From the NCBI GenBank assembly GCA_001724265.1, contig MEDY01000126.1, positions 51,443 to 71,442 of the forward strand: 20,000 bases of DNA, written 5' to 3'. The stretch is from Rhizaria sp. SCN 62-66. Taxonomy: Eukaryota. A program made the translations under genes and the position numbers. A model generated the notes under the pieces. That model had not been told where the DNA came from. It saw only the letters and a program-made list of their open reading frames with translations, and searched no databases. This document shows positions 1-20,000 of the stretch, in pieces; within the stretch, counting starts at the first letter, position 1; the number at the start of each line of letters is the position of its first letter.

Positions 1-723
1 TATGCTTTGATGCCGACCCTTGACGCGAAGTTCGGCTCCGGCGACGTGGCCGAGGACGAGGATGACGGCCACGGCCTCAAGGGCGGGTTCAAGAAGAAGC
101 CCCGCCGTGGCGATGACGACAACGACGAGAACGGCGACGGCGACGGTGGCCGTGGAGGCGGCCGTGGAGGCCGCGGCGGCTTCGGGCGCGGCGGCCGCGG
201 CGGCCGCGGTGGCTTTGGCCGCGGCGGCCGTGGCAGCAGCCGCGGCGACTCAGACTCTCGCTCAGACTCTAGCGCTGGCGCTGGCGCTGGTTCTAGCGAA
301 GACCGCGGTCGCAAGCGCTCGTTTAAGGACGCCAACGGCGGCGGCAGCGGTGATCGTGACGGCGGTGGCAGCGGCGGTCGCGGCGGCTTCCAGGCCAAGC
401 GCGGCCGCGGCGGCAGCTCCAGCGGCGGCTTCGGCGGCGGCCGCGGCGGCGGCTCGGGCGGCCGCGGCGGCGGCTCGGGCGGCCGCGGCGGCGGCGGCTT
501 TAGTCGCGGTGGCAGCAGTCGCGGCGGCAGCAGTCGCGGCGGCGGCGGCTTCAGCCGCGGTGGCGGCGGCAACAGTCGCGGTGGTGGCTTTGGCGGCGGG
601 CGCGGCGGCGGCCGTGGCGGCAGCAGTCGCGGCGGCGGCGGTGGCAGCGGTCGGTCGGGCAATAGCGCGCGTTTCGCCGCGAATAACAGTGGACGTATCG
701 GTGGCGTCGCTAAGAAGCGGTGA
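1..723 (+). CDS. 3' end (5'-truncated) of a protein with a long RGG/GAR-rich C-terminal tail; probably RNA-binding or nucleolar
   Basis: Frame is open from base 1 (YALMPTLDAKFG...) to TGA at 721-723. An acidic/basic linker is followed by many RGG/FGRGG/SRGG repeats and a basic end (..GGVAKKR). GC-rich codons give way to AT-rich 3' sequence. The folded domain lies outside the window, so the family cannot be assigned. Confidence 0.8.
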   Translation, partial: YALMPTLDAKFGSGDVAEDEDDGHGLKGGFKKKPRRGDDDNDENGDGDGGRGGGRGGRGGFGRGGRGGRGGFGRGGRGSSRGDSDSRSDSSAGAGAGSSEDRGRKRSFKDANGGGSGDRDGGGSGGRGGFQAKRGRGGSSSGGFGGGRGGGSGGRGGGSGGRGGGGFSRGGSSRGGSSRGGGGFSRGGGGNSRGGGFGGGRGGGRGGSSRGGGGGSGRSGNSARFAANNSGRIGGVAKKR

Positions 724-1021: not shown

Positions 1022-1030
1022 AAAAAAAAA
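1022..1030 (-). terminator. Candidate Pol III oligo-T terminator
   Basis: T9 on the minus strand, 4 nt after the CCA of the tRNA-like element. Confidence 0.35.
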
Positions 1031-1034
1031 GAGT

Positions 1035-1202
1035 TGGGAGATGTGCGAGAGTTGAACTCGGGTCCACGAGAAGCAAAAATATAAAAATATAAACTCGCTA
1101 TTCGTATAGAAAAGCGAATTAATATCCCTAAAAAACCAAATTTTAATTATTTATATCTCTTAAAAAATCTAATAAAACTTCACTTTATTCAGTCAACATC
1201 TC
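1035..1202 (-). ncRNA. tRNA/tmRNA-like structured element, non-canonical; possible Pol III ncRNA or tRNA/tmRNA relic
   Basis: Minus strand: GAGATGT (1202-1196) pairs perfectly with ACATCTC (1044-1038), followed by CCA (1037-1035). T-arm CCGAG-TTCAACT-CTCGC (1061-1045) lies directly before it. TG plus a D-arm-like ACT..AGT follows the 5' strand. A 20-bp internal hairpin spans 1130-1082 and a T9 run lies at 1030-1022. No valid anticodon arm. Confidence 0.5.
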
Positions 1203-1744
1203 TATTTTACCATGTTGTAACGTTATAATCAGTTAAACTCAAACATTTCTTAGAAAAGTAAGATGGGAATCTGAGCATTTTTTATTTTCACACATATTCT
1301 TTATCAAAGTATATGTACGTATACAGATGCACAAAAAAACAGCAACAGAGGAACAAAAGAGTGATTGAAAGCATTGTTTTATTGAGTATCTACGTAGTTT
1401 TAAACAAACAAAGAAGACCGCATGCGTGCTAAGAGCGACAAACTAACTCATCGTCTTTTGTTCTCTTGTCGATGCCATGACTGGTATCAAAATACAGTCA
1501 CTGGCTTGACACAGCAGTGTTGGAGTTCCAGGCCACAGCGAAACATCATCATGACGTTCCTAAAAAGCCTCCTCGATCTTCCTTATCTTACTGATTCAGT
1601 TTCCGAATGAGTATTCCATATTTTTTGTTTTTGTCATTATTGATATCATACTATTATCATAATTTCTTCGCATAGCCCAGCGTTTCCACCGATTCAGTTC
1701 ACTAACATCATGTAAACCGTAAACAGCATAACTGAACCCATTCT

Positions 1745-3008
1745 TTACAGCGCACCAGCGACAGGCGCCGCTGCCGCCTGCGCCGCCGCCGGGGCGGCCG
1801 CCGTGGCAGTTCCGCCGAGCGTGGACACGGTCTGCCACTGCCCGTCGGCCTGCTGATGCCACAGCGACACGGTGTTGTCGCCCTGCGCCACAGCGAGCAC
1901 ATCCCCCATGAGCGACCAGGACACGCGCCACGGCCGCTGCGGGAAGGCGATGGACTTGGCGACGCGCCAGGTGCCCGCGGCGTCCTCGGCCCAGATGCGG
2001 ACCGTCTTGTCCTCCGAGCACGACGCGAAGCAGGAAGACGTGAGGCCCAGAGAGGGCGCCCACGCGACGTCGCGGACCCAGTCGCCATGGGTCTGCTTCC
2101 CCTCGTGGAACGAGGTGACTTCGACCCAGCGCGTGGCGGCGCCCTCGGCGGGGGGCTGGTGCGGGTGCGCGAGGAGCCAGAGACGGACGGCGTTGTCGCA
2201 ACCGCCCGAGACGAGGCGCAGCGCCGGAACAGCGGCATCAGCGGCGTTGTTGTTGTTGTTACTGCTGTTGTTAGGGTCGGCGTGAAGTGCGGGAGCCCAG
2301 GAGACGGAGGAGACGCCGCCGGAGTGGGCTGGAATAACCTCGCAGGCCCAGGTGTTGTCGAGCTGGTGCGTCCAGATGGAAATGTTTCCATCCGAGGAGC
2401 CCGCCGCGAGGATCAAACCGAGGGAGTGAGGAGCGAACGCGATCGAGTTGACGGAGGCGTCGTGGCGGTCGTCCTCCCAGAGCTTGCCCCACACGCCGGG
2501 GGCCTGCTCCTTCCAGACGATAATCTTGCTGTCGTAGCCGCACGAGGCGAGGATGGGGCCGTATTTGGGGTGCGCCCAGGCCACCTGCCAGACGGGACCT
2601 TGGTGACCGAGGAGGGAGGCGAGGGGCGTGTGGTCGCCGGTCGGGGAAACTTCGAAGATTTTGATCGAGTGGTCGGAGGAGGCAGTCGCCAGGCGATTGC
2701 CGTAGTAGTTCAGCTGAGCATCGTGCTGTGAGAGAGAGGAATTGCAGTGCAAAGCAACAAGAAAGCAAGTGACGAAAAGAGTAGAGTGGAAACGAGGGCG
2801 AGGGAAGAGAGAATAGAAAGATATTGTGTGCAGGGGAGAAACAGTGTGAAGGAGTGTGAGTATGTGCTAAAGATAGATGTTGACGTGAGTGATAACATAA
2901 GTGAAGGGAATTTAGATTGCGTGTAATTGTAGAGCGTGAGAGAGGAGAAGGGGAACGTACAACCATGTCCTGATGACCAGACTCAAACACAACGGGCGAG
3001 GACGCCAT
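1745..3008 (-). CDS. SEC13: Protein transport protein SEC13 (WD40; COPII coat, Nup84/107 complex, GATOR2); exons 3008-2961 and 2725-1745, 342 aa
   Basis: Spliced product reads MASSPVVFESGHQDMV|HDAQLNYYGNRLATASSDHSIKIF...GHQGPVWQVAWAHPKYGPILASCGYDSKIIVWKE...HDASVNSIAFAPH...HGDWVRDVAWAP...WRVSWSLMGDVLAV, all hallmark Sec13 motifs. Stop TAA at 1747-1745. Confidence 0.97.
2726..2960 (-). other. SEC13 spliceosomal intron (235 nt, phase 0)
   Basis: GTACGT donor at 2960, pyrimidine-rich body, ...CTCTCTCACAG acceptor at 2726. Splicing restores the GHQDMV-HDAQL motif. Confidence 0.93.
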
Positions 3009-3457
3009 TGCGGTTTCTACAAAGCGCGCCAAGAAAAGAGAAAGCAAGGACAGAGTGAAAAATACAATCAAATATCGTGTGGCAAAGAAACGAAGCGAAA
3101 AGACTGTTGTTGCGGCCTATAGAGGAGCGAAAGGAGGGGCTGACCGTGTGCCTGACTCAGCGCTTGGCCAAGGGAGGAAACGCCAGTGTGAATCTCGGAC
3201 AAGCAGACAATTCCAGATGCGCAAAAAATAACAACTCGCAATAAAAACAAACGCCAAGGGCCTCTCAGCAAAGATGACAACTCCTGTCGGATTCTATAGC
3301 GCTCTGCGAGCTGCTTGATTCGTTGCCTTCAAGACGAGCCAGCGAGAGCCAGTGCAGAGTTCGACAGCCAAGGAGTCGGCTGGTGACTGTGGTCAGCTCG
3401 GTCCGATCAAAGTTAGGTCGGTGCGGGCGGAGTGATTGCTGGCTGAAGTCGAGAGCC

Positions 3458-3562
3458 AACTTCTAAAGAGGTTTACACCATGTTCCCGGTGTGCAATAGC
3501 GGATTTTTGCTATTGCTCGATTTCTAAATGCAGTGAAGAGTATTCACTGTTTATTAGAAGCT
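3458..3562. repeat. 105-bp multi-hairpin segment with imperfect 9-bp terminal inverted repeats, flanked by 7-bp direct repeats (MITE-like or structured promoter)
   Basis: GAGAGCC (3451-3457) | AACTTCTAA ... TTAGAAGCT | GAGAGCC (3563-3569). Internal stems ACACC/GGTGT, GCAATAGC/GCTATTGC and CAGTGAA/TTCACTG. Confidence 0.35.
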
Positions 3563-3570
3563 GAGAGCCG

Positions 3571-3960
3571 TCTTTGTTCCCTACCAAAGGTACGTCCCCC
3601 GATCCGCTCGGCTCGCTCTCTCTTCTCCGCGTTTGATTTCGACGATTTCCTTGCTGCAGCAGCGTCTTCCCGGCGTCTGGTGGTGCTCGGCTTTCGTCCC
3701 TTCACAAATGATGAAAACTTCTCTTGGCTGTCTAAACTTCCGTGTTGATAACCACTGGTTTCGCAACTATATTCTGAGTGTCAATTCAAACCCTTCACTT
3801 CTCCCAAACCCTCGACACACAATTCGAACCCATTTCTCACACGATATATCTATTTTCTGCTTCTTTTTCTTCTTTAGTTATCTACTTTGCGTGGAGAGCA
3901 AACTATTTTGAGCTAACGTGAACCTCTAAGGTCATGTTATGCTTTGCTCGCAGTTTCATC
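3571..3960 (+). ncRNA. Putative spliced non-coding snoRNA host transcript (intron 3590-3877; outer ends approximate)
   Basis: AAG|GTACGT donor at 3590, the same hexamer as the SEC13 and RPL5 donors. Long pyrimidine tract plus TAG acceptor ending 3877. Pyrimidine-rich TCTTTGTTCCCT just upstream. The two nearest upstream ATGs reach stops before the donor, so there is no credible spliced ORF. Confidence 0.6.
3703..3780 (+). ncRNA. Box C/D snoRNA, SNORD53/plant snoR37-like, predicted to guide LSU rRNA 2'-O-methylation at the C in ACAG[C]CAAG
   Basis: Terminal stem CAC/GTG; box C ATGATGA 3708-3714; guide TTCTCTTGGCTGT 3719-3731; D' CTAA 3732-3735; C' GTGTTGA 3742-3748; TGGTTTCGC 3756-3764; box D CTGA 3774-3777. 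Both antisense elements complement the conserved LSU segment GCGAAACCACAGCCAAGGGAA. Confidence 0.9.
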
Positions 3961-4327
3961 AATGTTTTTTTATTGTCGCTGTGTTGATGCTAACTTGCAG
4001 TCGCGTGTCTAGTGTCCACCAAGCTTGCGTGTTGCACAAAGACGCTGCTGTATCTAGCTGCTGCATTATTACTAGCATTCGTTTCACTTGCACGCACGTG
4101 CTAAGGCCAACGCTGTAGGCTGCTATGATAGTCCAACATATCCTTGAGCCATGAGTTGGATGTTATCTTTTTCTTTTGTTTGCGACAATACACGTCGTAC
4201 TTTGAAACTAAACAACACTTCGTGATCCAATCTTTGCACATACATTTTTGTACAATTAAATTCACGCGAGGTACACTCGCTCAAAAGAGTTGTCAAAGCG
4301 ACTTACACGTCCCCAACTTTCAACATA

Positions 4328-4357
4328 AGCTTATCGTTTTCGAGCTTATCGTTTTCG
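4328..4357. repeat. Perfect tandem duplication of AGCTTATCGTTTTCG (2 x 15 bp)
   Basis: Seen directly in intergenic sequence. Confidence 0.9.
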
Positions 4358-4733
4358 TATTCGAGTGATGATATTGAATTGAAGTTGTCGATTTATTCTT
4401 GCGTTCTGTTTCGTATGGACAAAACCGTCACTATGTCATCGTATTCTTTTCTCTTTTAAGCACAACTGTTGTGTTTAAAGGCGGAGTATCTTATCTTAAA
4501 TAGTACACGTACTACCACCAACACACGAGTGTTATCGTGATCTTTCTTATTTCTACTGAACTGGGCTATTTAAACGTAAAACAATATACATCCTATACAT
4601 AAAGTACTGTGTGATTCTTATTGCGATTCTTCTTCTCTCCCTCTCAAAGCAAAACAACAAACAAAAACAGACGCCAAGTGCACGTCCAATACTGTACGCT
4701 TGCTTGTTTACAGATACTTGTTGTGAAGCTGAC

Positions 4734-7700
4734 TCACTGCTGCTGAGGCTGCTGCTTTTCAGCGGCCTTTTGCACTGCCGCAGCCCTCCCGGCCCGCGCC
4801 GCAAGCGTGGCCCTCACCGCAGCGATTGTGTTGTCTACGACGGCGGCCGAGTCACCCCCGCGTCCCACGAGGGCCGCGTGCAACACCGACGTCACACTGT
4901 CACACGCCGCCGCGTTTGACTCAGACTCTAGTCCAGTGACAGTGGCACTGTCAATGGACGTGGGCGGCGGGTCAGCGGCGGTGGCAAAACGGACGAGGCT
5001 GTTATGCGCTGCATCTGAGGCAGCGACGGAGGCGACAAGCGCAGCCCACGGGACTGTGGAGTTGGACTTGGCTCCCTGGGAACCAATGACAGCGCCGAAT
5101 TCGAACATTTCACGCTTTGCACCGGTTTCAAGCACGCTCGACACACGGCTCCCGGCGGTGAAAACCTTCCCAGTGCCGAGGATGACGACCCCGGCAGCTG
5201 TATTCGCACCCTCGCCATTCGTCGCGCGCACAGTCGCCCTTGCAGAGTCGCTATCACCAATCGCGGCAGCAGCAGCAGCAGCAGCGGGCACGTTTCCAGC
5301 GGAGTTGCTGCCGTTCGCGGCCGCGGCCGCAGAGGAATCGGCGCCATTACTCCCAGCATTGCTGTTGTGTGCACTTTTTGTGGTCGAGAGCGAGCTCGTT
5401 GTGAGCGCCGCCTTCGTGCGGAGATTCTGCAGTGTCTTTGTCGTGCCTCCGTAGTCCTCATCGTCGCCGTCGTCAAGCGCGCCGAACAGGTCGTCCGCGT
5501 CGTCGTTGCCCGCCAGGCTGAGAGTCATTTGGGCCCGCAGCGCGGCGGCGGCGGCGGCGGCAGCGCCCTCGAGTTTGGGGCGGGAGTCCGAGCCCACGCT
5601 GTGGTGGCGCTGAGGGCGGCGGGTGACTGCGGTCAGCGACTCCGCGTCCAGCGTCCGGTGCTTGGACGCCAAAGACGCCGTGATGTTGAGGTGAGACGGG
5701 ATGCCGCCGTTTGAGGTCGCGGTTGCGGAGGGGGTGGCCGAGTTGAGAAGTCCGGCGGCGGCGGCGGCGCGGACGTTGTTGTTGCTGCTGCTGCTGCTAC
5801 TGCTGCTGCTGATGTTGCCGCCGCCACCGGCCGCGTTGTTGCCGCTATGGATCAGGTGGGCTGTCGGGGTGAAACCAGAGCCAAACCCACCGAAACCGCC
5901 GCTGGCGAAGCCGCCACCGTTGAAGCCGGCGGCAGTGCCAGTGCTGACTGCAGCCCAGGACATGCTGTCAGAGCCCCCGCCGTCGGCGTCGGTGTCGCCA
6001 CTGGCGCTCGCGCCGGTGGCCGCCCCCGCATGGCTACTATGGAGGAAGCCGGCGTTGTTGTTGTTGCGACCCTTGTTGTTGCTGCTGCTGCCGCTTTTGC
6101 TGAGGTTCGTGATGTTGCCATAGGCGCTGCTGCCGCCAGCGGTGCTCCCGCTGCCGCGCCCGCCGCCGCCGCCGCCGTTGCCGCCGCCGCCGAAGCCGGA
6201 CTGCGAATGCGACTGCGACTGGGAGCCTGAGCCTGAGCCGCCGGCGGATGTGGTTGATGGACCGGGGATATGGTCAATGTTCAACGGATAGCCGCCGGGG
6301 GAAAGTAAGCCGCCAGCGCCCGCGGAAGTTAAGCCGCTAGCGCCGATGATGGCTGCCGTAACGGCGGAATTTAAGCCGCCACTGGGCAAAGTACGAGAGT
6401 TGCCGGCGCCGGAGCCGGAGCCAGTTGAGCGGTGACTACCGCTAGACAGGCCGTTGCGCTTATTCGTGTTGACATTCAACATCGTAGTGTGATTGTTGTT
6501 GTTGTTATCGAGAGAAGCGTCATTGTTATTGCTATTGTTGTTGTTGGGATGGCTAGGGTTGCGGCGCGGGGGCGGTAGCGGATCACCATCAACGTTCACG
6601 ACATCATCCGTCTCGTTGAACTCGACGAGGTCGTCGGAGTCAAGCCGCATCTGGTGCGGGAAGTTCGGCCGCATCAGACCAGCGGGGCCGCCACTCTGCT
6701 GCTGCTTTTGCTGCTGCAGAGCGGCAGCGCCAGCACCGGTGTGGGTGTTAGCGGTGGCCTCACTAGCGTCCTTGCAAGCGTTGTTGTCAAAAGCGAGAGT
6801 GACGCCGTTAGCGACACCGCTGCTGTTGTTGTTGCTGCTGATGTTCGCAGTGTTGTTGCTGTTGTTGTTGTGCAGCTCGTGGGCGTCAATGACCGCGGTG
6901 ATGTCTAAATCACCGTAGTTTTCCTCATCATCATCGCCGTTACCGTTACCGTTCGGCTTCGCACTGCCACTATTGTTGTTGGCAATTGTAGTAGCAGTTG
7001 TTGTGGCAGCAGTGGCAGCGGCAGCGGCCGTGTTTTCGCTAAAATCCTCAATATCATCAAGACCCCCAAAGTCATCGTCACCAATGTTCTTCCCAGCAGC
7101 CGCAGCAGCAGCACTTGCACTGTCACCCTTGTCGCCGACCGCCTGCTGGCCCCCCGCCTGCTCACTATGGGCCGGCGCGACCGCGCGCATCAGCGTCTCG
7201 CGCATCGCAGCATCATCCGGAGCAGTGATGCGGAACAGACCTGCGCGTTGCTGTGAGATCGTGACTCCAGCACCACCCGCGGCCGCGCTGGCGGCGGTGT
7301 GGAGAGCTGCTGCGGCGGCGGCAGCGGCAGCAGCGGCGGCGGCGGCGGCGGTGTGGTCACTGTCTTCGTCGTCCTCGCCGTTGCCAAAGCCGTCCGTGTC
7401 GACGTCGTTGTCATTGTTCTTGTTGTTGTTCTTGCTGTTGTTGTTGACAGTAATGTTATCGTTGTCGCAGGCCGAGGCAAAGGCGGCGCGCGCGGCGGCA
7501 ACAGCAGGGTCCATCACATTCGTGCCATCGCCGGTGTTGTCGTCGTCGTCATCGCCGATGGAGAAGCCACTCTCACTGCCACTGCCACTGGCGCTGGGAG
7601 CATTCGCGTTGACATCAGCAGCTCTCGGCTTGCGCTGCTGCAGTTGCTGCTTGTTGTTCGCCGCAGTCTCAGCGTTTTTGTCGTAGAGCGCAGTGGCCGC

Positions 7701-9077
7701 GAGCGGAGCATCGTCAAAATCCTCAATATCGAACAGTTCATCAACAGTATCATCAGCAGCGTCGTTGACCCAACGCCCGCGGACAAACCGTGCACCGCCG
7801 ACAATCGCGCCCGTGCTTGCGGTGCCCGCAGCATTCACCGCAGCGTTGTTGTTGTGGTTATTGACCGCCGCAGCAGTACTGGCAGTGTTGTTCGTGGGAA
7901 GTGGGGCGGCGGCATCCAACTCGCCGCTGTCAGAATCAGCCTTTGCATTCGCATTCGCATCGAGAGTGTTGTTTCTAGCTGCAGTAGGACTGAAATCGGG
8001 CGTAAGCGTGTTCATAAGCTCCTCAGTCCCCGCGGCAACAGCAGTACTCGAGCCGCTCGTTCCAGCGTCAACGCGGCCGTGATCGTCCGAGATCGAGTCT
8101 GAGGAGAGACTCACGGTCACCTCAGTCGGCTTCTTGATCGCATTCGTGATGTTCAGACTGTTGTTGGCGTTGGTGGTGACGTTGCTGCTCCTGTCGTCGT
8201 CGTCGAAGTCGCTGAGGTCGTCCAACGCATCAGCGTCGGCCTGAGGAAGACTCTTAGTGCTCAAACCCAGGCTATCAAAAGCACTGGCGCTGGCGCTGGC
8301 GCTGCTGCTTGAGGCACCCACGCTGCGGCCACTGGCAAAGCTGTTGGCAGCAGCGGAGGACTTGCCACCAATGTTGTCGTTCTCAGTGGTGGTGAAGAAA
8401 TCAGCATCATCTTCGTCGTCATCGTTGTTGCCGTTGATCCGCGTCTTGGTGTCGGTGTCATAGCCGGCGAAAGAGGAGGAAGCCTTGCTGCCGCCGGAGC
8501 CCTTCTGCTGCTGCTTGGTGGCGAGCGCAACGCCGGCGGGCACAGCCGGGATGAACCTCAGTGACGATGACGCTGACGCAGCTGTAGAAGCGGCAGTGGC
8601 AGTGGCAGCATGACGCTTCGCAGCGAACGAGCCTGCCGCAGAGTGCGAGGCCGACGCGGCAGTCGAGGCGGAGGCGGAGGACTGGGCGGGGGTGTAGATC
8701 GTGTGGTGAACAGCCTGGATGATTGGCGTGAACGCGGCCACGGTCTGGTTGGGAGCCGTGCGGACCAAGTCAATCCACTGGAGGATCATACCAAACGCTT
8801 CCTCAGTCGTGAAATCAGAGGAGCTGGAAGAGCCTGCCGGTGCTACAGCGCCAGAAGAGGCGGAGGACGAAGCAGGGGCAAACGTGGGCTTGTAGGACGA
8901 GGAAGGGAACGCGCCGGCAGCGCTCCCAGTTGTGGCACTCGAGCCAGCGGTGGAGCCAGCGGGCGGGGCTGGGTGGGGACCGAATGTTTCGTAGATATGG
9001 TTCGCGGAGCGCGAGAGGGCGTCGCAATGGGTGCGCAGGGACTGCACCCGGGCACGGAAGTCGGCCGTCGTCGACAT
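4734..9077 (-). CDS. Large low-complexity, largely disordered protein of unknown function (about 1447 aa from ATG 9077)
   Basis: 4.3-kb uninterrupted ORF with GC-rich coding composition and A/N/S/G/D tracts like neighbouring genes. In-frame TGA at 9098-9096 bounds it upstream and the first ATG is at 9077. Small ordered-looking blocks occur at both termini; no domain recognised. Confidence 0.8.
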   Translation of the reverse strand: MSTTADFRARVQSLRTHCDALSRSANHIYETFGPHPAPPAGSTAGSSATTGSAAGAFPSSSYKPTFAPASSSASSGAVAPAGSSSSSDFTTEEAFGMILQWIDLVRTAPNQTVAAFTPIIQAVHHTIYTPAQSSASASTAASASHSAAGSFAAKRHAATATAASTAASASSSLRFIPAVPAGVALATKQQQKGSGGSKASSSFAGYDTDTKTRINGNNDDDEDDADFFTTTENDNIGGKSSAAANSFASGRSVGASSSSASASASAFDSLGLSTKSLPQADADALDDLSDFDDDDRSSNVTTNANNSLNITNAIKKPTEVTVSLSSDSISDDHGRVDAGTSGSSTAVAAGTEELMNTLTPDFSPTAARNNTLDANANAKADSDSGELDAAAPLPTNNTASTAAAVNNHNNNAAVNAAGTASTGAIVGGARFVRGRWVNDAADDTVDELFDIEDFDDAPLAATALYDKNAETAANNKQQLQQRKPRAADVNANAPSASGSGSESGFSIGDDDDDNTGDGTNVMDPAVAAARAAFASACDNDNITVNNNSKNNNKNNDNDVDTDGFGNGEDDEDSDHTAAAAAAAAAAAAAAALHTAASAAAGGAGVTISQQRAGLFRITAPDDAAMRETLMRAVAPAHSEQAGGQQAVGDKGDSASAAAAAAGKNIGDDDFGGLDDIEDFSENTAAAAATAATTTATTIANNNSGSAKPNGNGNGDDDEENYGDLDITAVIDAHELHNNNSNNTANISSNNNSSGVANGVTLAFDNNACKDASEATANTHTGAGAAALQQQKQQQSGGPAGLMRPNFPHQMRLDSDDLVEFNETDDVVNVDGDPLPPPRRNPSHPNNNNSNNNDASLDNNNNNHTTMLNVNTNKRNGLSSGSHRSTGSGSGAGNSRTLPSGGLNSAVTAAIIGASGLTSAGAGGLLSPGGYPLNIDHIPGPSTTSAGGSGSGSQSQSHSQSGFGGGGNGGGGGGRGSGSTAGGSSAYGNITNLSKSGSSSNNKGRNNNNAGFLHSSHAGAATGASASGDTDADGGGSDSMSWAAVSTGTAAGFNGGGFASGGFGGFGSGFTPTAHLIHSGNNAAGGGGNISSSSSSSSSNNNVRAAAAAGLLNSATPSATATSNGGIPSHLNITASLASKHRTLDAESLTAVTRRPQRHHSVGSDSRPKLEGAAAAAAAALRAQMTLSLAGNDDADDLFGALDDGDDEDYGGTTKTLQNLRTKAALTTSSLSTTKSAHNSNAGSNGADSSAAAAANGSNSAGNVPAAAAAAAAIGDSDSARATVRATNGEGANTAAGVVILGTGKVFTAGSRVSSVLETGAKREMFEFGAVIGSQGAKSNSTVPWAALVASVAASDAAHNSLVRFATAADPPPTSIDSATVTGLESESNAAACDSVTSVLHAALVGRGGDSAAVVDNTIAAVRATLAARAGRAAAVQKAAEKQQPQQQ

Positions 9078-9608
9078 GGGGAGCACGGGGCGGCTTCAAA
9101 GCCCAGAGCTGTTGTGGGGGGAAGACACGAAGAAGGCGACGCTCGTGCTGCTTTGCAAGAGGGTTTGTGGCGTCCCGAAGAGACCTGAAGAGCTACGATT
9201 AAAAATAAAGACGAGAAAAGATAATGAGAACAGCAGAGTGCCATCGGATATGCACGCTTTTGATTGTTTCGGCGACCTTGAGACGTCTGGAGTTCGACCG
9301 TTGCCCTCCGTCCGTTCCAGCCTCCCGCTCGTGGTTTGCAGGCTGGCCGACCGAGAGGGGACTGTGGGTCCCGGTCCAGGGAGCTGGATACCTAACTTCA
9401 CGCTTCTCCAGCACCCTCGTTTCATTGTCAGTGATGCTGTAACTATTTTCCACATTAGCAAATGCGCTTATCATTAGGCCCCTTTATTTGCGGCACCAGA
9501 AAGTCGTGACGATCCCCTTCGAATCCGTGCTGCTTTAACCACGACTCTCGCATTGCGTTTCCACTCACGATCTTCCTTTCTCTTTGCTCTTTGCACACCC
9601 TCTAGGCG
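9078..9608. promoter_or_regulatory. Compact divergent promoter/5'UTR region shared by the unknown gene (-) and the SCYL gene (+)
   Basis: Only 531 bp separate the two head-to-head ATGs. Confidence 0.55.
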
Positions 9609-13216: not shown

Positions 13217-14482
13217 ATGGTACGTTTTAGAATTGACCTCGCACTTATCTACATTTGAGTAATTTCGACATCCTTGTGCATGGCCGTTTTGTGCGTCTTT
13301 TTCACCTCGCAATGCTTTCCCAGGCCCCCCCAACCCTGGCTGGCTGGGACTGGGGGAACGAAAATGCGCGGCATTTGCCTGCTTGCCCGTTGCGTCATTG
13401 CTTCTCTTGATCGATTTCTCACTGTTGTCTACTCTTCATTCTATCTTGTGATTGGCTTTTCTTTGCGCTTGTGTTTGCTTGTACAGGGTTACGTCAAGGT
13501 TCAGAAGAACGCCAGCTACTTCTCCCGCTACCAGGTGCAGTTCCGCCGCCGCCGCCAGTGCAAGACTGACTACTACGCCCGCAAGCGTCTTGTCTGGATG
13601 GACAAGAACAAGTACAACGCCCCCAAGTACCGCCTCGTCGTCCGCTACTCCAACCGCGACGTCATCTGCGCCATCATCTCCTCCGATGTCACCGGTGACC
13701 GCGTTGTCAAGGTTGCCTACGGCCACGAGCTCACCAAGTACGGCGTCAAGTTCGGCTTCAACTCCTGGCCTGCCACCTACGCGACTGCTCTCCTCCTTGC
13801 CCGCCGCGTGAACACTCACTTCAAGCTCCCCTACCTTGGCTCCAAGGAGGCTGTTTCCAGCTACTTCAACGTCGCTGATGGTGATGTCGAGGACGACTCC
13901 GGCTCCGATGTCTCTGAGCGCCGCCCCTTCAAGGCTGTCCTCGACGTCGGCCTTCACCGCACCACCATCGGCGCCCGCGTCTTCGCGGCTGTCAAGGGTG
14001 CCTGCGACGGTGGCCTCAACATCCCCCACTCCCCTTCCCGCTTCGTTGGTACCCCCAAGGGCAAGGGTGCTGACACCGACTTCGAGGTTGTCCGCAAGTA
14101 CATCTTCGGTGGCCACATCGCCGAGTACATGAACATGCTCCAGGAGGAGGATGAGGACAAGTTCAAGGCTCACTTCGCCGTCGCCAACAAGGCTGGCGTC
14201 AAGTCCGATGCCCTCGAGGCCCTCTGGCAGTCCGTCCACGACAAGATCCGTGGCGAGTCCGCTGAGGCCCTTGTCGCCAAGGAGGCCAGCAAGCTCGGCT
14301 ACTTCAAGACCCGCACTGCTGCCAAGCCCGCTTCTTACCCCAAGAAGCAGTGGAAGCGCCAGGCTCTCTCGCTCCAGCAGCGCAAGGCCCGCATTGCCGT
14401 CAAGCTCACCATCCGCGATGCCCGCATCGCTGCCAAGCTTGCCGAGATTGCGGCCCTCGAGAACGGCTCTGATTCCGAGTAA
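13217..14482 (+). CDS. RPL5: 60S ribosomal protein L5 (uL18); exons 13217-13219 (ATG) and 13487-14482, 332 aa
   Basis: M|GYVKVQKNASYFSRYQVQFRRRRQCKTDYYARKRLV..DKNKYNAPKYRLVVR..LLLARR..PFKAVLDVGLHRTTIGARVF..GACDGGLNIPHS..RKYIFGGHIAEYM. Strongly biased codon usage of a highly expressed gene. Confidence 0.98.
13220..13486 (+). other. RPL5 intron immediately after the start codon (267 nt)
   Basis: CAAACATG|GTACGT donor; pyrimidine tract plus GTACAG acceptor; yields the expected MG(F/Y)VK start. Confidence 0.93.
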
Positions 14483-14772: not shown

Positions 14773-17700
14773 TCACTTTTGCTGCGACTGCTGTACAGTG
14801 CTACCACTGTTACTATTGCTATTGCCTCCGTTTGTCGAGCCCGTTGCTGTTGCGTTTACCGGCGGCGCTACGAGCAAGAACATAACGCGCTCCATCTCGA
14901 TGAGATACCGCGCCCGAAATTTGGGATTACGCCACACTATGTCACTGTACCGGGCCGTCCAACCCATCGCTCGCGGGTCCCCTCCAGCATTGTTGCCTGA
15001 AGTCGCGACTCCGCTGCCGTTGTTCGGCGACGAGGCTGCGGCTGCTGCAGCGGCCGCGACGGCGGCGCGCTTTTGCGCAGCCGCAGCGGCTGTGGGGAAT
15101 GTGACGCCGTGTACGATCGTGCTGAGAGATACGACCACATCTTCATCGTCGTCGTCGTGATTACCGTTGCCATTGCCGCCAGCAGCAGTGCTTTCACTGT
15201 CGCCAATGCCGCTGATCGAGAGCGAAGCTGCGTTCGCAGTTGAGCCAGCGAGAGGGCTAAGCTGCTGTCCTGACGTGCCACTGTTAAAGCTAGAGCTAGA
15301 GCCATTGCTGGAGCTGCTGCTGCTGTTGCTGCTGCTGTTGCTCGAGTACGTGACTGAGTTGGCGACGGATGCAACGGGGGGCGGGAGCACGTCTAAGGGA
15401 GGCAGCACTGAGAAGGGGTACTTAGACAGCGCCGGGTGACGGGCTGGAGGCTGGCCATACGCTGACTGAGACACGACAGCGGTCGCCGTCGCCGTCGCCG
15501 TCGCCGTCACCGTCGCTGCAGCTGCTGTTGAAGTAAGCAGTGACTGCGAATGCGAATGTGAAAGCGTGCCGGTCGCGCGCGGTGACATCTGCTGTTGAAA
15601 CTGCTGTGAAGCGCGCTTGCTGTTGACACTGCCATCATTCGCGTTCACGTTGACAGTTAATGAGGCCCTGCGACTCGTCGTTGGCGGCGCAGCTGTTGCT
15701 GCCTCAGTCAGGTTACCCGTCGCCGTCGCCGCCGCAGCCGCGGCGGAGTCAGATGGCGCAATTGCATTAGGAACAGTCGCAGTGACAGCTGTGGATGACC
15801 TGGGGCTTAAAGACGCAGTCGCAGCCAGCGTCGCCGTCGTATTCAACTGCTGTTGGAGAGTAAAAACCTGTGGTTTGAGAGCCAAGCCATAACTTTGGAT
15901 CAGAGTCGCTGTGATAACTGCAGAAATGCGCGCTACAACTTCAACAAAGCAGGGGTATGACAGCATTGTCTCACCCCCACCGCCGATCACACTGCTACTG
16001 CTGTTACTACTGTTGCCGTGACTCTGGCTGTGCGCAAACGCGTTGCCAGCCCCAGCGCCTTCATCACGTGATAAAGCGCACGCAAGGCCGATCAAACGCG
16101 TTGGCAGGACGGGTCCAGCGATGCCTTGTCGCGTTAACAACGCGATAACGGCTTCTGGAGAGGCGCCGCGGGCAACGGGCTCGGGATCGCGGTCGTGGGG
16201 GACTGTGAGCGCGGGTAAGGGGGTACTTAGATTACCGCCATTTAAGCCAAGCACAGCGGCGCGAGCAGAGCGGTGCTTGCCGTTGTTCGCTTGAGCACTC
16301 GCAGGGTCATCGTCGTCGTCGGCGTTGTTGTCGGTCTTTTCGTTGTTCCCATCGCTGTTGCTGCCGGTACTCTTGGCAGCCTTCTTTGGCTTGCTCTTGC
16401 GACCGGAACTCGCGCCAGAGTTGTTGTTATTGTTGCTGCTGTTAAGGATAGCAACAGCAAAGTCACTAGGCTGTGTGAAGGCATATCCGACGGCGTTCTT
16501 ACTGCCTTTGCCTCCCGCATTGACCATCGCGCTCACGCTGCTGTTGCTGCTATTGATTCCAAGAGTCGGGCCGTTCTGCGCCCGGTCCGCGCGGAACTGC
16601 TCCGTAATAGCGCAGGCCGCAAGCCAAGCGCGGTGCAGACCGAGCGCGTGGCGGAACAACAGCGCTTGCACGGGGGGCGCGGAGGCTAAGAACACGCGCA
16701 GATCGAGCTGTAGCAGGCGCTGCTGCTGCAGGGCGTGCGGCAACAGATAGTTGTCAAGCAAGAAGGCGAGTTTCGACGACGGCAGCGCGAGGTAGCGCGA
16801 CTGGTCTGTCCCCGCGCCGTTGCCACCACTGCTATTAGAAGTAGAGGCTGGGGGTTGGTAGGTCGCAGGGTCAAAAATAGACGGACGACGGAACGGGATT
16901 CCGCTGCCATAGCCTCCGCCGCTGGCGCCGCCGTTTGGACCAAACATGAGGTCGTCCTCGTCGTCGTCCTCATAATCGCCCTCGGCATCATCGTCGTCGT
17001 TATGATCGTTCTCATCGTCGTTGTCGTCGCTGAAGTTGGTGTTATGCACATCTTTCCCGTTCCCACCGCGCATACGGCGCGCATCAACGCCGCCACCAAG
17101 CTCGCCAGTCTCACCCGCACCGACGCCCGCGCCCGCGCCAGTGCCCGCGGCGATTGAGCTGGTGTAGCTCGCATCGCCGCCGCCGGTCAGACCAGCGCCG
17201 CGCTTACCACCCTTGCCCTTGCGTCTGCGGCCGCCGCGCTTGTTGCCGCCGCTGCTCCCGGCAGCGGCAGCGGCCGCGGCGGCCGCGGCGACGCCCGCGG
17301 GTCCGTGCACCCTCCGCTCGACCCACGCGTAGTCGGCGACGTCGTTGTCGTAGAACTTAGCCTGTGCAATTCGGATCAGCAGCTCGATGAGCTCGGGGAG
17401 GGTGACGAGTTTATCGGGCGCGCCGCCGACGCGGGCCTTAAGTGTGCGGACGCTGGGAAAACGGTTCGAAACGGAGTGAGGCAGCGCAGATGCAGACGCA
17501 GAGTCGTTGTGGTGACTGGAGCTTGCGTTAGAGCTCGAGCTGGAGCTAGAGCTTGCATTGGCGTTTGAGTTGGGTGACTGGAGGTGCAAAGGCGGGAGCT
17601 GCGACGGGAGAGCAACGCGCTGGACAGCTGTACTAGCGCCGGCTGCTGCCGCGGCCGCTGCTGCTGCTGCTGCTGCGGCTGCTGCTGTATTAGCAACGCT

Positions 17701-20000
17701 GCCGCGCCGGCCACCGTTTGCCCCGCCAGTCACGCTTCCGCGACGCCCCCCAGTGCCCATAGTGGCAGCTGCGGCGGCCGCGGCAGCGGCAGCGCCGACA
17801 AGGCTACCACGCCTTCCGCCAGCAGCGCCACTGGCGTTGATGTTGTTGTTCAAGTGAGCGTTTGGTGTGAAGATACTGTGCATGTTGTCGCTCAGGTTCT
17901 CACGACGGCGCTGACGCTGGTAAAGACGCGCGCGCAGCTCGTCGCGGCGCTGGAGCTCGGCTTCAGTGAGGGTGGAGCGACGGATGACGCCCGCTGCGAG
18001 GTGGTCGAGCATCGCAAAAGTTAAGCCGCGGTCGTCAATGAACTAAACAGTTTCCAAGTGAATAGGCAAAAAAAGAAGCAGTGAAGATGAGAATAAACAG
18101 GAAGAGATGTAATTTTTTTTCCATAAATGAGTAAAATAACGAAGCGACACGATATAAGTCGATATAAGTAACGCAGTGTCTTTCTTTCGCATACCTGGGA
18201 CTGGCGACACATTTCGAGCACTTTTCCAAGATCCGCAACAGCAAAGTCGAGCCCTGTGGGACCGACGCCCTTGCCGGCGCACACTGTGGCAAAGATAAGC
18301 CGCAGCGCGCCGTAGTTCGCGCGAATCACGTCGTACAGCTTGTTCGTTTCCTTGATCACAAAGGCCCTCTCAGCTTCCTCCGCAGCCGCAGCCGCCGCAG
18401 TCGTTGCCACAGCTGCCGTCGCCGCCGCCGCCGCCCCCGCGGGCCCCGCCGCGGCCTCCGCCGCCGCCACCGCGGCCTCCGCCGCCGCCCTGCCCGCCCG
18501 GTCGCCCGCAGCGGCCGCCTGAGGCGATTTCGCGACCACACCGGTCAGCTCCGTCTGTTCACAGTCGCTGCGACACTGCGCCTCCCGCGCGCGCGCGGGC
18601 CACGTCGGCACAGACCGCGGCAGAGCAGGAGAGCGCAGAGTCGCCAGCGCACGCCGCGCCGCGCGCAGCGGCTCGGATGCCGTGAGAGCGCGCGTCAGCA
18701 GGGTCAACTGCGCCGGCCGGAGCACGGGGACGGCGGGCGCGGTGGCGGCCATTGCGGCGGCCAAGGCCGGGGCCGTCGCGGCGGCGGCGACGGCGGCTGC
18801 GGCGGCCGCGGAGGGCGTCGCGGCAGTGGCGGAAGCCGTGGAAAGCTGAAAAAGCTTGCGTTCGATCGCCGTGAGTAAATCGGAGAGCCGATCAATCCAC
18901 AGTGCACGGCGGGACTGTTCGCAAACGGGAACTGGGGACGTCAACGCTGCGGCGCTTAGACTGCCGTCCAGCAATGCGTTGCCGTTGCTGCCATCACCGT
19001 TGTCGGGCGCGGGGAAAAAGCGGCGACCAGATGCGTTTTGCTGTTGCCCAGCGTTCGCGTCACTGTTTGCGAGAGAAGACCGCTTGTTTTGCTGCTGCAG
19101 CTGCTTGCTGATCGTAGCGGCTGTCAGCGGGAACTGCGGTGGCACACGTGGGATCACGTACGAAAACGACGTGCCAACAGACGAAAAAGCAAAATACGCA
19201 GCGTTAACCGCAGTCGCCTCAATTTGTACGAGGTGATCGTGCAACACGTGCAGCGAAGTTAAGCCGCACGACCAGTACAAGTCGATAGGGGACGAGCGCA
19301 CGAAGGAATACGTGGACGCAGCTGCTGCAGCCGCGGCCGCGGCGCCTGCCGCCATCGCAACGGCCGCGGGGCCCCGGCGGCCGCTGCTGTCGCTGTTGAG
19401 TGACAGCGCGCCGAACCCAGCGTGTCCGTGTGCAACGCGCGGCACTGCAGCGGCTTCGAGAGGGATAGAGTCACCGTTAGCCACGACAAGGACTGCGGTC
19501 ACTCTCGGCGCCGCAGCCGCAGCCGCTGTCGCAGTCGCAGTGTTCGTTGCAGTTGCGTTCGCGTCCGTAGTCGTAGTAGCGTCGGCAGGTGGACTTTCGC
19601 CTGCAGTCTCAGTCGACGACGCGGTCGCGTCCTTCGTATCAGACTCTGCGGCAACATGCGTGATGCCGGGCGCCGTTGGAATCGACAGCAGACTCAGCGT
19701 GGGCATCGCAGTCACGCCAAGCGCTTCCTCGCCACCCGTGCGCGCCGCCGCCGCAATGTGCGGCCACGTGAGCCAGTAGAAATCGCCCCCGCTGCCGTTG
19801 CTGCCGCCGCCAGCCCTGGAGCCGTTGACGGAGGACTTAGGCGTGAGGAACCCCCACATGTTGGCCACGGACGCGCCCATCATTCCCCCGGCGCCGCCGC
19901 CGCCGCCGTAGCCCATCGCGGCCTGGATCGCCACGGCGGACGCGTCACCTTCGTCTTCCTCATCGCCCCAGCCAAAGCTCCCGCCGGCGCCGCCGCCGCG
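14773..20000 (-). CDS. 3' part of a very large low-complexity protein (>1690 aa visible) with degenerate EF-hand-like helical blocks; exons >=20000-18195 and 18042-14773
   Basis: Frame is open from 20000. The intron joins ..KVLEMCRQSQ|FIDDRGLTFAMLDHL.. Ordered blocks LRLIFATVC, VTLPELIELLIRIAQAKF and LSYPCFVEVVARIS resemble the L..xEFxExLxRxA motif of EF-hand-like proteins in flagellated eukaryotes. Function uncertain. Confidence 0.8.
18043..18194 (-). other. Spliceosomal intron (152 nt, phase 0) joining ORFs 18021-19934 and 14773-18012
   Basis: CAG|GTATGC donor at 18194, AT-rich body within GC-rich exons, TGTTTAG acceptor at 18043, in-frame join. Confidence 0.9.

Follow-up and report, generated by a model that had tools for sequence, protein, structure and literature searches.

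The minus strand of a contig from an uncultured wastewater eukaryote carries, between two protein-coding genes, a unit of about 165 nt whose ends resemble those of a tRNA and whose middle does not, which raises the question of whether it is a gene for an oversized tRNA- or tmRNA-like RNA or something less. A sequence-only reading of the 20,000-nt stretch analysed here (the window) had proposed three explanations for it: a novel Pol III tRNA-mimic noncoding RNA, an ssrA relic derived from an organelle or a bacterium, or a decayed intron-containing tRNA. We conclude that the unit is most likely the broken remnant of a tRNA-type gene and not a new kind of RNA gene. Judged from its sequence, its tRNA-world nature is supported, and its status as a gene is not.

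A 1020-nt spacer holds the unit and separates the stop codon (723) of an RGG/GAR-rich ORF, whose 3' end occupies 1..723, probably on the plus strand, from the stop codon (1745) of a SEC13 homologue on the minus strand (1745..3008), compared with 290 nt at the other convergent pair in the window. The unit shares the strand of SEC13, whose stop codon lies 540 nt upstream of it. The description of the locus as lying between two convergent genes is probably right: SEC13 is on the minus strand and the RGG-rich ORF is probably on the plus strand, the latter having no Pfam match on either strand and a codon-position GC pattern that leaves its strand undecided. Coding regions of the window have a GC content of 0.60-0.66 and the spacers are AT-rich.

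The same DNA is present in bioreactor, wastewater and sludge metagenome runs of several studies. An independent assembly from another study (run X2) covers positions 723-1780 with one difference, at 1340, and the arrangement of the unit is therefore not an assembly chimera. Contigs of four runs across the region of the unit represent one near-identical strain, the single difference being that at 1340, and supplied neither transcript ends nor useful variation. No RNA run was among those listed as containing 850-1450. One further run (X9) is labelled as cDNA and covers only 1389-1900; it is probably DNA. A second contig of run X2, with unrelated flanks, shares at least 80% identity over 40 nt of the AT-rich interior of the unit (1129-1168), a similarity that may have arisen by chance between AT-rich sequences or may mark a related spacer at another place.

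The recognisable genes of the window are the SEC13 homologue, an SCY1-like kinase/HEAT protein and RPL5. SEC13 consists of a short exon 1 of 16 codons (3008-2961), a 235-nt intron (2960-2726, GTACGT...CAG) and exon 2 (2725-1745). At about 13274-13490 on the plus strand, the RPL5 ORF has no ATG near the conserved N-terminus and is preceded by a pyrimidine tract and CAG, a layout which resembles that of SEC13 and thus suggests a 5'-proximal intron in RPL5 as well. Among PDB chains RPL5 scored best with fungal ones (270 bits), slightly above animals and plants, and the closest database relatives of this protein are environmental ones, first at 79% identity and then at 59-66%. Three long minus-strand ORFs (4734-9086, 1450 aa; 14773-18012, 1079 aa; 18021-19934, 637 aa) belong to no Pfam family and contain many Ala, Gln, Ser, Gly and Asn runs encoded by GCN/CAG/GTT-type repeats. 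The spacer from the start of SEC13 to the stop of the 1450-aa ORF (3071-4734) is 1.6 kb, long for an otherwise compact contig, and contains no ORF of at least 100 aa (up to 4610) and no Rfam match. A scan for bacterial promoters and terminators gave nothing relevant.

Direct reading of the minus strand confirmed the elements that had been described, namely the stem, the T-arm, the D-arm-like hairpin, the AT-rich middle of about 110 nt and the T9 run. The unit begins with the 5' strand of a closing, acceptor-like stem, GAGATGT (1202-1196), which forms 7/7 Watson-Crick pairs with the 3' strand ACATCTC (1044-1038). After TG (1195-1194) comes a D-arm-like hairpin composed of ACT (1193-1191), the loop GAATAAAGTGA (1190-1180) and AGT (1179-1177); it is weak, with 3 bp, and its loop has no GG. 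We take the segment 1177-1195 to be a poor A box, which by eye agrees at about five of nine defined positions with the consensus. The place of the anticodon and variable arms is held by an AT-rich interior of about 110 nt (1176-1066), in the 200 nt of the window that are richest in AT (GC 0.24); the 130 nt from the 5' stem strand to the 20-mer discussed below (1195-1066) comprise 61 T, 40 A, 20 G and 9 C. Tracts of T6 (1167-1162 and 1135-1130), T5 (1087-1083 and 1079-1075) and T4 (1177-1174 and 1113-1110) run through it.

On the 3' side, GGAC (1065-1062) stands directly 5' of the T-arm, at the position of the tRNA variable loop and of the conserved GGAC of tmRNA. The T-arm itself, CCGAG (1061-1057), TTCAACT (1056-1050) and CTCGC (1049-1045), has 4 bp and a C.C mismatch at its base and encloses the B-box-like motif GAGTTCAACTC (1059-1049), which matches the consensus at about 8 of 11 positions. 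The 3' stem strand is followed by C (1037) and CAA (1036-1034), so read that CCAACTC precedes the T9 run (1030-1022), which begins 7 nt past the C that follows the stem; neither strand of the window has a longer run of T. The statement that the unit ends in CCA holds only if no discriminator base is assumed; counting one gives a tail of C + CA + A, and a proper discriminator plus CCA is not encoded.

Several short motifs surround the unit. On the plus strand the T9 run is an A9 that overlaps an AATAAA (1019-1024) about 300 nt past the stop of the RGG-rich ORF; this is possibly the poly(A) signal of the left gene, which would account for the T run without Pol III. Downstream of SEC13, minus-strand AATAAA motifs occur at 1384-1379, 1289-1284 and 1190-1185. 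A TATA-like TTATAA (1223-1228, minus strand) lies at -26 to -21 from the first G of the unit, where it could easily occur by chance in AT-rich DNA. Directly upstream of the unit, 1228-1297 on the minus strand gave a weak C/D-box snoRNA-like match to snoR12 (16.1 bits against a cut-off of 39, E 4.2), probably a chance match.

How much of a tRNA is there? The unit shares with tRNAs a 7-bp acceptor stem (7/7) that stacks on the T-arm and, within the T-arm, a TTCRANY loop and the G53-C61 pair; the T-stem has 4/5 pairs, with the C.C mismatch at 49-65. No stem for an anticodon arm pairs in register with the TCTCG strand. The ARAGORN and Rfam searches that the sequence-only reading had proposed returned no clean match to an ordinary tRNA: ARAGORN called 0 genes, as it also did at its default threshold when introns were permitted, and Rfam gave 0 matches at gathering thresholds. 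When ARAGORN was relaxed to 60-70% it produced a 109-nt 'tRNA-Arg(TCT) with a 37-nt intron' (1143-1035), a call we rejected, since 284-285 of 300 shuffled upstream sequences yield one of this kind. The proposed decayed tRNA is retained as the most economical reading, though not proven. We also considered the plus strand as a retrotransposon primer-binding site (TGG plus the complement of a tRNA 3' end) and rejected this as well: the complementarity spans the whole T-arm, there are no flanking noncoding direct repeats, and 0 of 9 scanned ORFs contain a retroelement domain.

At permissive thresholds the only Rfam family to touch the unit was tmRNA (RF00023), which scored 11.8 bits where gathering requires 47. 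The E-value of this match was 0.011 in a search of 501 nt and 0.42 in the search of 20 kb, and the posterior probability was high over the T-arm only. For mt-tmRNA there were 0 matches at the gathering threshold; the E-value search keeps only the best member of a clan, so an mt-tmRNA score below 11.8 bits would be hidden. The alanine identity set of tmRNAs and mitochondrial tmRNAs is described as G3.U70, A73 and CCA (PMC3590771). The third pair of the unit reads G-C when the best register is taken and A-U when that of tmRNA is taken, bearing out the observation that G3.U70 is absent, and the base after the stem is C, not A, followed by CAA, so that A73 and CCA are absent too.

Other hallmarks of tmRNA were likewise not found in the unit. 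ARAGORN -m detected no mRNA-like tag reading frame at default or at 80%, and its call at 60% overran the end of the stretch and was discarded as noise. The 5' D-loop analogue has no likeness to the UUCGAC region of tmRNA. Most mitochondrial ssrA genes are circularly permuted according to PMC3590771; the gene order of the unit is not permuted. An apparent similarity between the interior of the unit and Roizmanbacteria-type tmRNAs (loci L007, L016 and L034) reached a score of 33 (z 5.9; 1/1000 dinucleotide shuffles), and we rejected it on finding that unrelated windows of the fetched loci, 860 of which were scored, reach 35-38 and that nhmmer aligns the T-arm only (E 0.025-0.44). Every defining feature of ssrA that could be tested failed in the unit, and the reading as an ssrA relic fares poorly, with 11.8 against 47 bits, no G3.U70 and no A73-CCA.

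We searched for the 20-mer GGACCCGAGTTCAACTCTCG, which comprises GGAC, the T-stem, the T-loop and CTCG, in three collections: metagenome contigs, one genome per prokaryote species, and viral contigs. It occurred letter for letter in 36 public tmRNA- or tRNA-type loci, 27 in metagenomes and 9 in prokaryote genomes; the viral contigs gave 0 matches to it and 0 to a 22-mer across the T-arm and stem. Among the 27 metagenome loci, 18 are 3' ends of tmRNAs called by ARAGORN, 7 have a tmRNA-type tail by eye, and the other two are a tRNA-Ala and an intron-bearing tRNA-like locus. These counts uphold the rule that GGAC plus T-arm plus CATCTCC is typical of tmRNA 3' ends, and CATCTCC is also the acceptor 3' strand in several of the tmRNAs fetched. 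The prokaryote genomes contributed three tmRNAs (Paceibacterota, Roizmanbacteria and a Firmicutes bin), a tmRNA-type tail at an Anaerolineales locus, four haloarchaeal tRNA-Pro(GGG) genes and one locus of unclear type. The junction found in the window, with its tail CACATCTCC, was present in 0 of the 27 metagenome loci, and the contig of the window and its relatives were not among them.

Two of the loci deserve separate mention. The intron-bearing metagenome locus (L009, with the 20-mer at 1607-1626, plus strand, on an AT-rich contig) looks like a tRNA gene with the anticodon loop CTGTCGA; its intron is AT-rich, about 34 nt long and includes a T5; ARAGORN made no call there at default. In a Crocinitomicaceae MAG (L035, 451-470, plus strand) the 20-mer is followed by the tail gtctcgctacaagaaagctc, which is repeated about 90 nt upstream, and the locus looks like a duplicated tRNA/tmRNA 3' end of the kind found at integration sites.

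Because the 20-mer is common to unrelated lineages and to plain tRNAs, it is not evidence of ssrA ancestry. Its identity to the homologous position in real genes nevertheless marks the module as one of the tRNA world and not as random AT-rich spacer. The 20-mer is a convergent, functionally constrained tRNA-world sequence, generic and no marker of ssrA.

Whether Pol III could make an RNA from the unit was assessed by the rules known from yeast, which may differ in the lineage of the unit. A type 2 gene needs a workable spacing of its A and B boxes and the absence of an internal T-tract terminator, and the unit has neither. In S. cerevisiae type II promoters the distance from A to B box is given as 32-93 bp, and as 89-133 bp in intron-containing tRNA genes (PMC12409998); that from the A-like segment to the B box of the unit is about 137 nt, beyond the yeast range. 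For yeast Pol III, T5 is reported as the minimal terminator and T6 as already giving efficient release (PMC9278858). The T6 tracts of the unit begin 36 and 68 nt into it, and all its T6, T5 and T4 tracts precede the B box. The internal T6 and T5 tracts together with the spacing of about 137 nt thus make a full-length Pol III RNA of 165-175 nt unlikely, unless the lineage terminates differently. The anatomy described for the proposed novel Pol III tRNA-mimic RNA is correct; the proposal itself loses ground through these T6 and T5 tracts, two of each, and through the spacing.

We then asked how readily such a constellation arises by chance. A loosely defined T-arm motif occurs once in the window, counting both strands, against a mean of 0.82 per block-shuffled window, so that by itself such a motif is nothing rare. 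Of 1000 shuffles, 17 contained a T-arm followed by 7 nt that are perfectly complementary to a stretch 50-400 nt upstream. In the predicted ensemble the closing stem has pair probabilities of 0.77-0.96 and the T-arm is present in about 27% of structures. A fold constrained to contain acceptor stem and T-arm reaches -34.6 kcal/mol against -34.9 for the MFE, 0.3 kcal/mol worse, and is a five-way, cloverleaf-like junction in which the D-arm-like hairpin also forms. In a comparison of the folding energy with shuffles, a check that had been suggested, the overall z-score was -1.84, with 12 of 200 shuffles folding equally well, and so is within the shuffled background.

We tentatively favour, at a little short of an even chance, the reading that a tRNA-type gene has degenerated here, leaving in the AT-rich spacer of two convergent genes a pseudo-tRNA that at most still binds TFIIIC. 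What survives would be the acceptor/T-arm minihelix half of a tRNA, that is, both acceptor strands, the GGAC of the variable loop and the T-arm that is also the B box, while the D and anticodon region would have been replaced by, or eroded into, about 110 nt of T-rich and AT-rich sequence. The B box could still bind TFIIIC, and a Pol III that initiated near 1202 would be expected to halt at the T6 tracts, leaving no stable RNA of 165-175 nt. B-box motifs bound by TFIIIC without Pol III are a described class, the ETC sites (PMC12409998), and the locus may at most be such a TFIIIC-bound, ETC-like site at a gene junction. The T9 run may be no more than a part of the left gene's 3'-end signal. This remnant reading is favoured by the identity of the 20-mer, the 17/1000 frequency of a closed T-arm, the lack of any recognised intact gene, the T tracts and the A-to-B spacing, the folding z-score, the ETC precedent and the AATAAA. 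One feature argues against simple decay: the minihelix is a clean, GC-richer island, with 7/7 pairs and a canonical T-loop, next to an unrecognisable middle, and uniform neutral decay should damage both. Selection on an RNA minihelix, or a recent insertion into a tRNA gene, would account for this pattern of preservation no less well than slow decay does.

That pattern leads to the alternative in which the unit encodes a structured RNA with a function, and selection acts on its tRNA-like acceptor/T-arm minihelix. Such an RNA would have to come from a polymerase indifferent to T tracts, for example from Pol II reading through past SEC13 or from a unit of its own, and then be processed in the manner of mascRNA by RNase P, RNase Z and the CCA-adding enzyme. 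Perfect acceptor pairing and a canonical T-arm, with the remainder free, are what minihelix recognition needs; the closing stem forms at about 0.95 with the cloverleaf-like junction within 0.3 kcal/mol of the MFE, and the position on the SEC13 strand, 540 nt past its stop in a spacer of 1020 instead of 290 nt, suits such an RNA. We nonetheless regard it as unlikely, given a z-score of just -1.84, a D-like loop without the GG for a D/T-loop contact, a T-arm in only about 27% of the ensemble and no match to an Rfam family. A chance constellation, in which a T-arm-like hairpin and a complementary 7-mer met fortuitously in AT-rich spacer and the T run came from the poly(A) signal of the neighbour, seems distinctly improbable to us. 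The frequency of loose T-arms in shuffled windows, the window-wide E-value of 0.42 for tmRNA, the folding score and the ease with which relaxed ARAGORN calls a tRNA on this T-arm, as it did with 263-285 of 300 shuffled upstream sequences, would all allow it, and a joint probability of roughly 1e-4 to 1e-3, estimated as a rough product, would be expected to be realised somewhere when very many windows are scanned. Against it are the rarity of a closed T-arm in the shuffles, the identity of the 20-mer to modules of several distant lineages, and the standing of the module as a GC-richer island within the most AT-rich part of the window.

We consider it very unlikely that the unit is an ssrA relic, acquired from a mitochondrion or plastid in the manner of a NUMT, or from a bacterium, and cut down to its tRNA-like domain. 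It is true that tmRNA is the sole Rfam family to touch the unit, that 25 of the 27 metagenome loci with the 20-mer are of tmRNA type, and that an AT-rich interior indifferent to T tracts is like organelle DNA. Such a route would also not be absurd for a lineage of this kind, as mitochondrial ssrA genes without an mRNA domain are known in protists: the sequence-only reading had stated this, and the sources bear it out, describing them in jakobids and, with the additions of Lang et al. 2023, in oomycetes, cryptophytes, haptophytes, malawimonads and amoebozoans (PMC3590771, PMC10352661). These points are outweighed by a score far under 47 bits, the missing alanine identity elements and encoded CCA, the lack of a UUCGAC-like D-loop analogue, an internal similarity matched by unrelated DNA, the silence of ARAGORN -m (default, 80%), the presence of the 20-mer in ordinary tRNAs as well and the unpermuted order. 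An active nuclear Pol III gene of type 2, encoding a novel tRNA-mimic or vault-like RNA of 165-175 nt, strikes us as slightly less probable still. Vault RNA genes have paired ends, a 5'-proximal A box, a 3'-proximal B box and an oligo-T. The unit offers paired ends, a weak A box, a 3'-proximal B box, a T9 run 7 nt past the stem and TTATAA at -26 to -21; but a polymerase would meet two T6 and two T5 tracts on its way from the start to the B box, the A box is poor and about 137 nt from the B box, and the Rfam models for Vault (RF00006), Y RNA and tRNA gave nothing at E up to 10 within 900-1400.

Set beside known systems, the unit resembles tRNA pseudogenes and ETC sites in having an acceptor stem, GGAC, a canonical T-arm serving at the same time as B box, a downstream T run and a place in a spacer between Pol II genes, and differs from them in acceptor strands that are 165 nt apart yet perfectly paired and in lacking an identifiable anticodon arm. 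The likeness to ETC sites in particular is confined to the motif GAGTTCAACTC, and the TFIIIC site here is putative. With the tRNA-like domain of tmRNA, including the mRNA-less mitochondrial forms, it shares GGAC plus T-arm plus CATCTCC, a complementary 5' strand and a non-tRNA body between them; unlike tmRNA it is nuclear, is not permuted and has, besides its low score, no G3.U70, no A73-CCA, no UUCGAC-type analogue, no tag frame and no identified pseudoknots. Vault RNA and other type 2 Pol III noncoding RNAs have the same paired ends, A-box-like 5' element, 3' B-box hairpin and oligo-T, whereas the unit carries internal T6 and T5 terminators and has no Rfam Vault match at E up to 10. Elements of the mascRNA type in Pol II transcripts are compact cloverleaves of about 60 nt. 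The unit is like them in offering, downstream of a same-strand protein gene, a minihelix that RNase P and RNase Z could recognise, and unlike them in its 110-nt insert and in showing no upstream A-rich or triple-helix element.

The boldest form of the idea, a nuclear locus for an oversized tRNA/tmRNA-like RNA in which only the minihelix, carrying a 110-nt AT-rich body, is constrained, synthesis does not follow canonical Pol III rules and tRNA enzymes do the processing, and which would be either a new class of tRNA mimic or a domesticated organellar or bacterial ssrA domain, is in our estimate improbable. If the unit is a mere remnant of a tRNA gene, it is ordinary, and would serve at most as a marker of past tRNA-gene turnover and as a site that TFIIIC may bind where two convergent genes meet, in a lineage of eukaryotes that is unstudied. 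If its minihelix is under selection, the unit would represent either a tRNA-mimic RNA of a new kind or, for the first time, a nuclear descendant of the tRNA-like domain of tmRNA. Either of these selected readings, if true, would bear on how tRNA-processing enzymes are recruited to transcripts that are not tRNAs.
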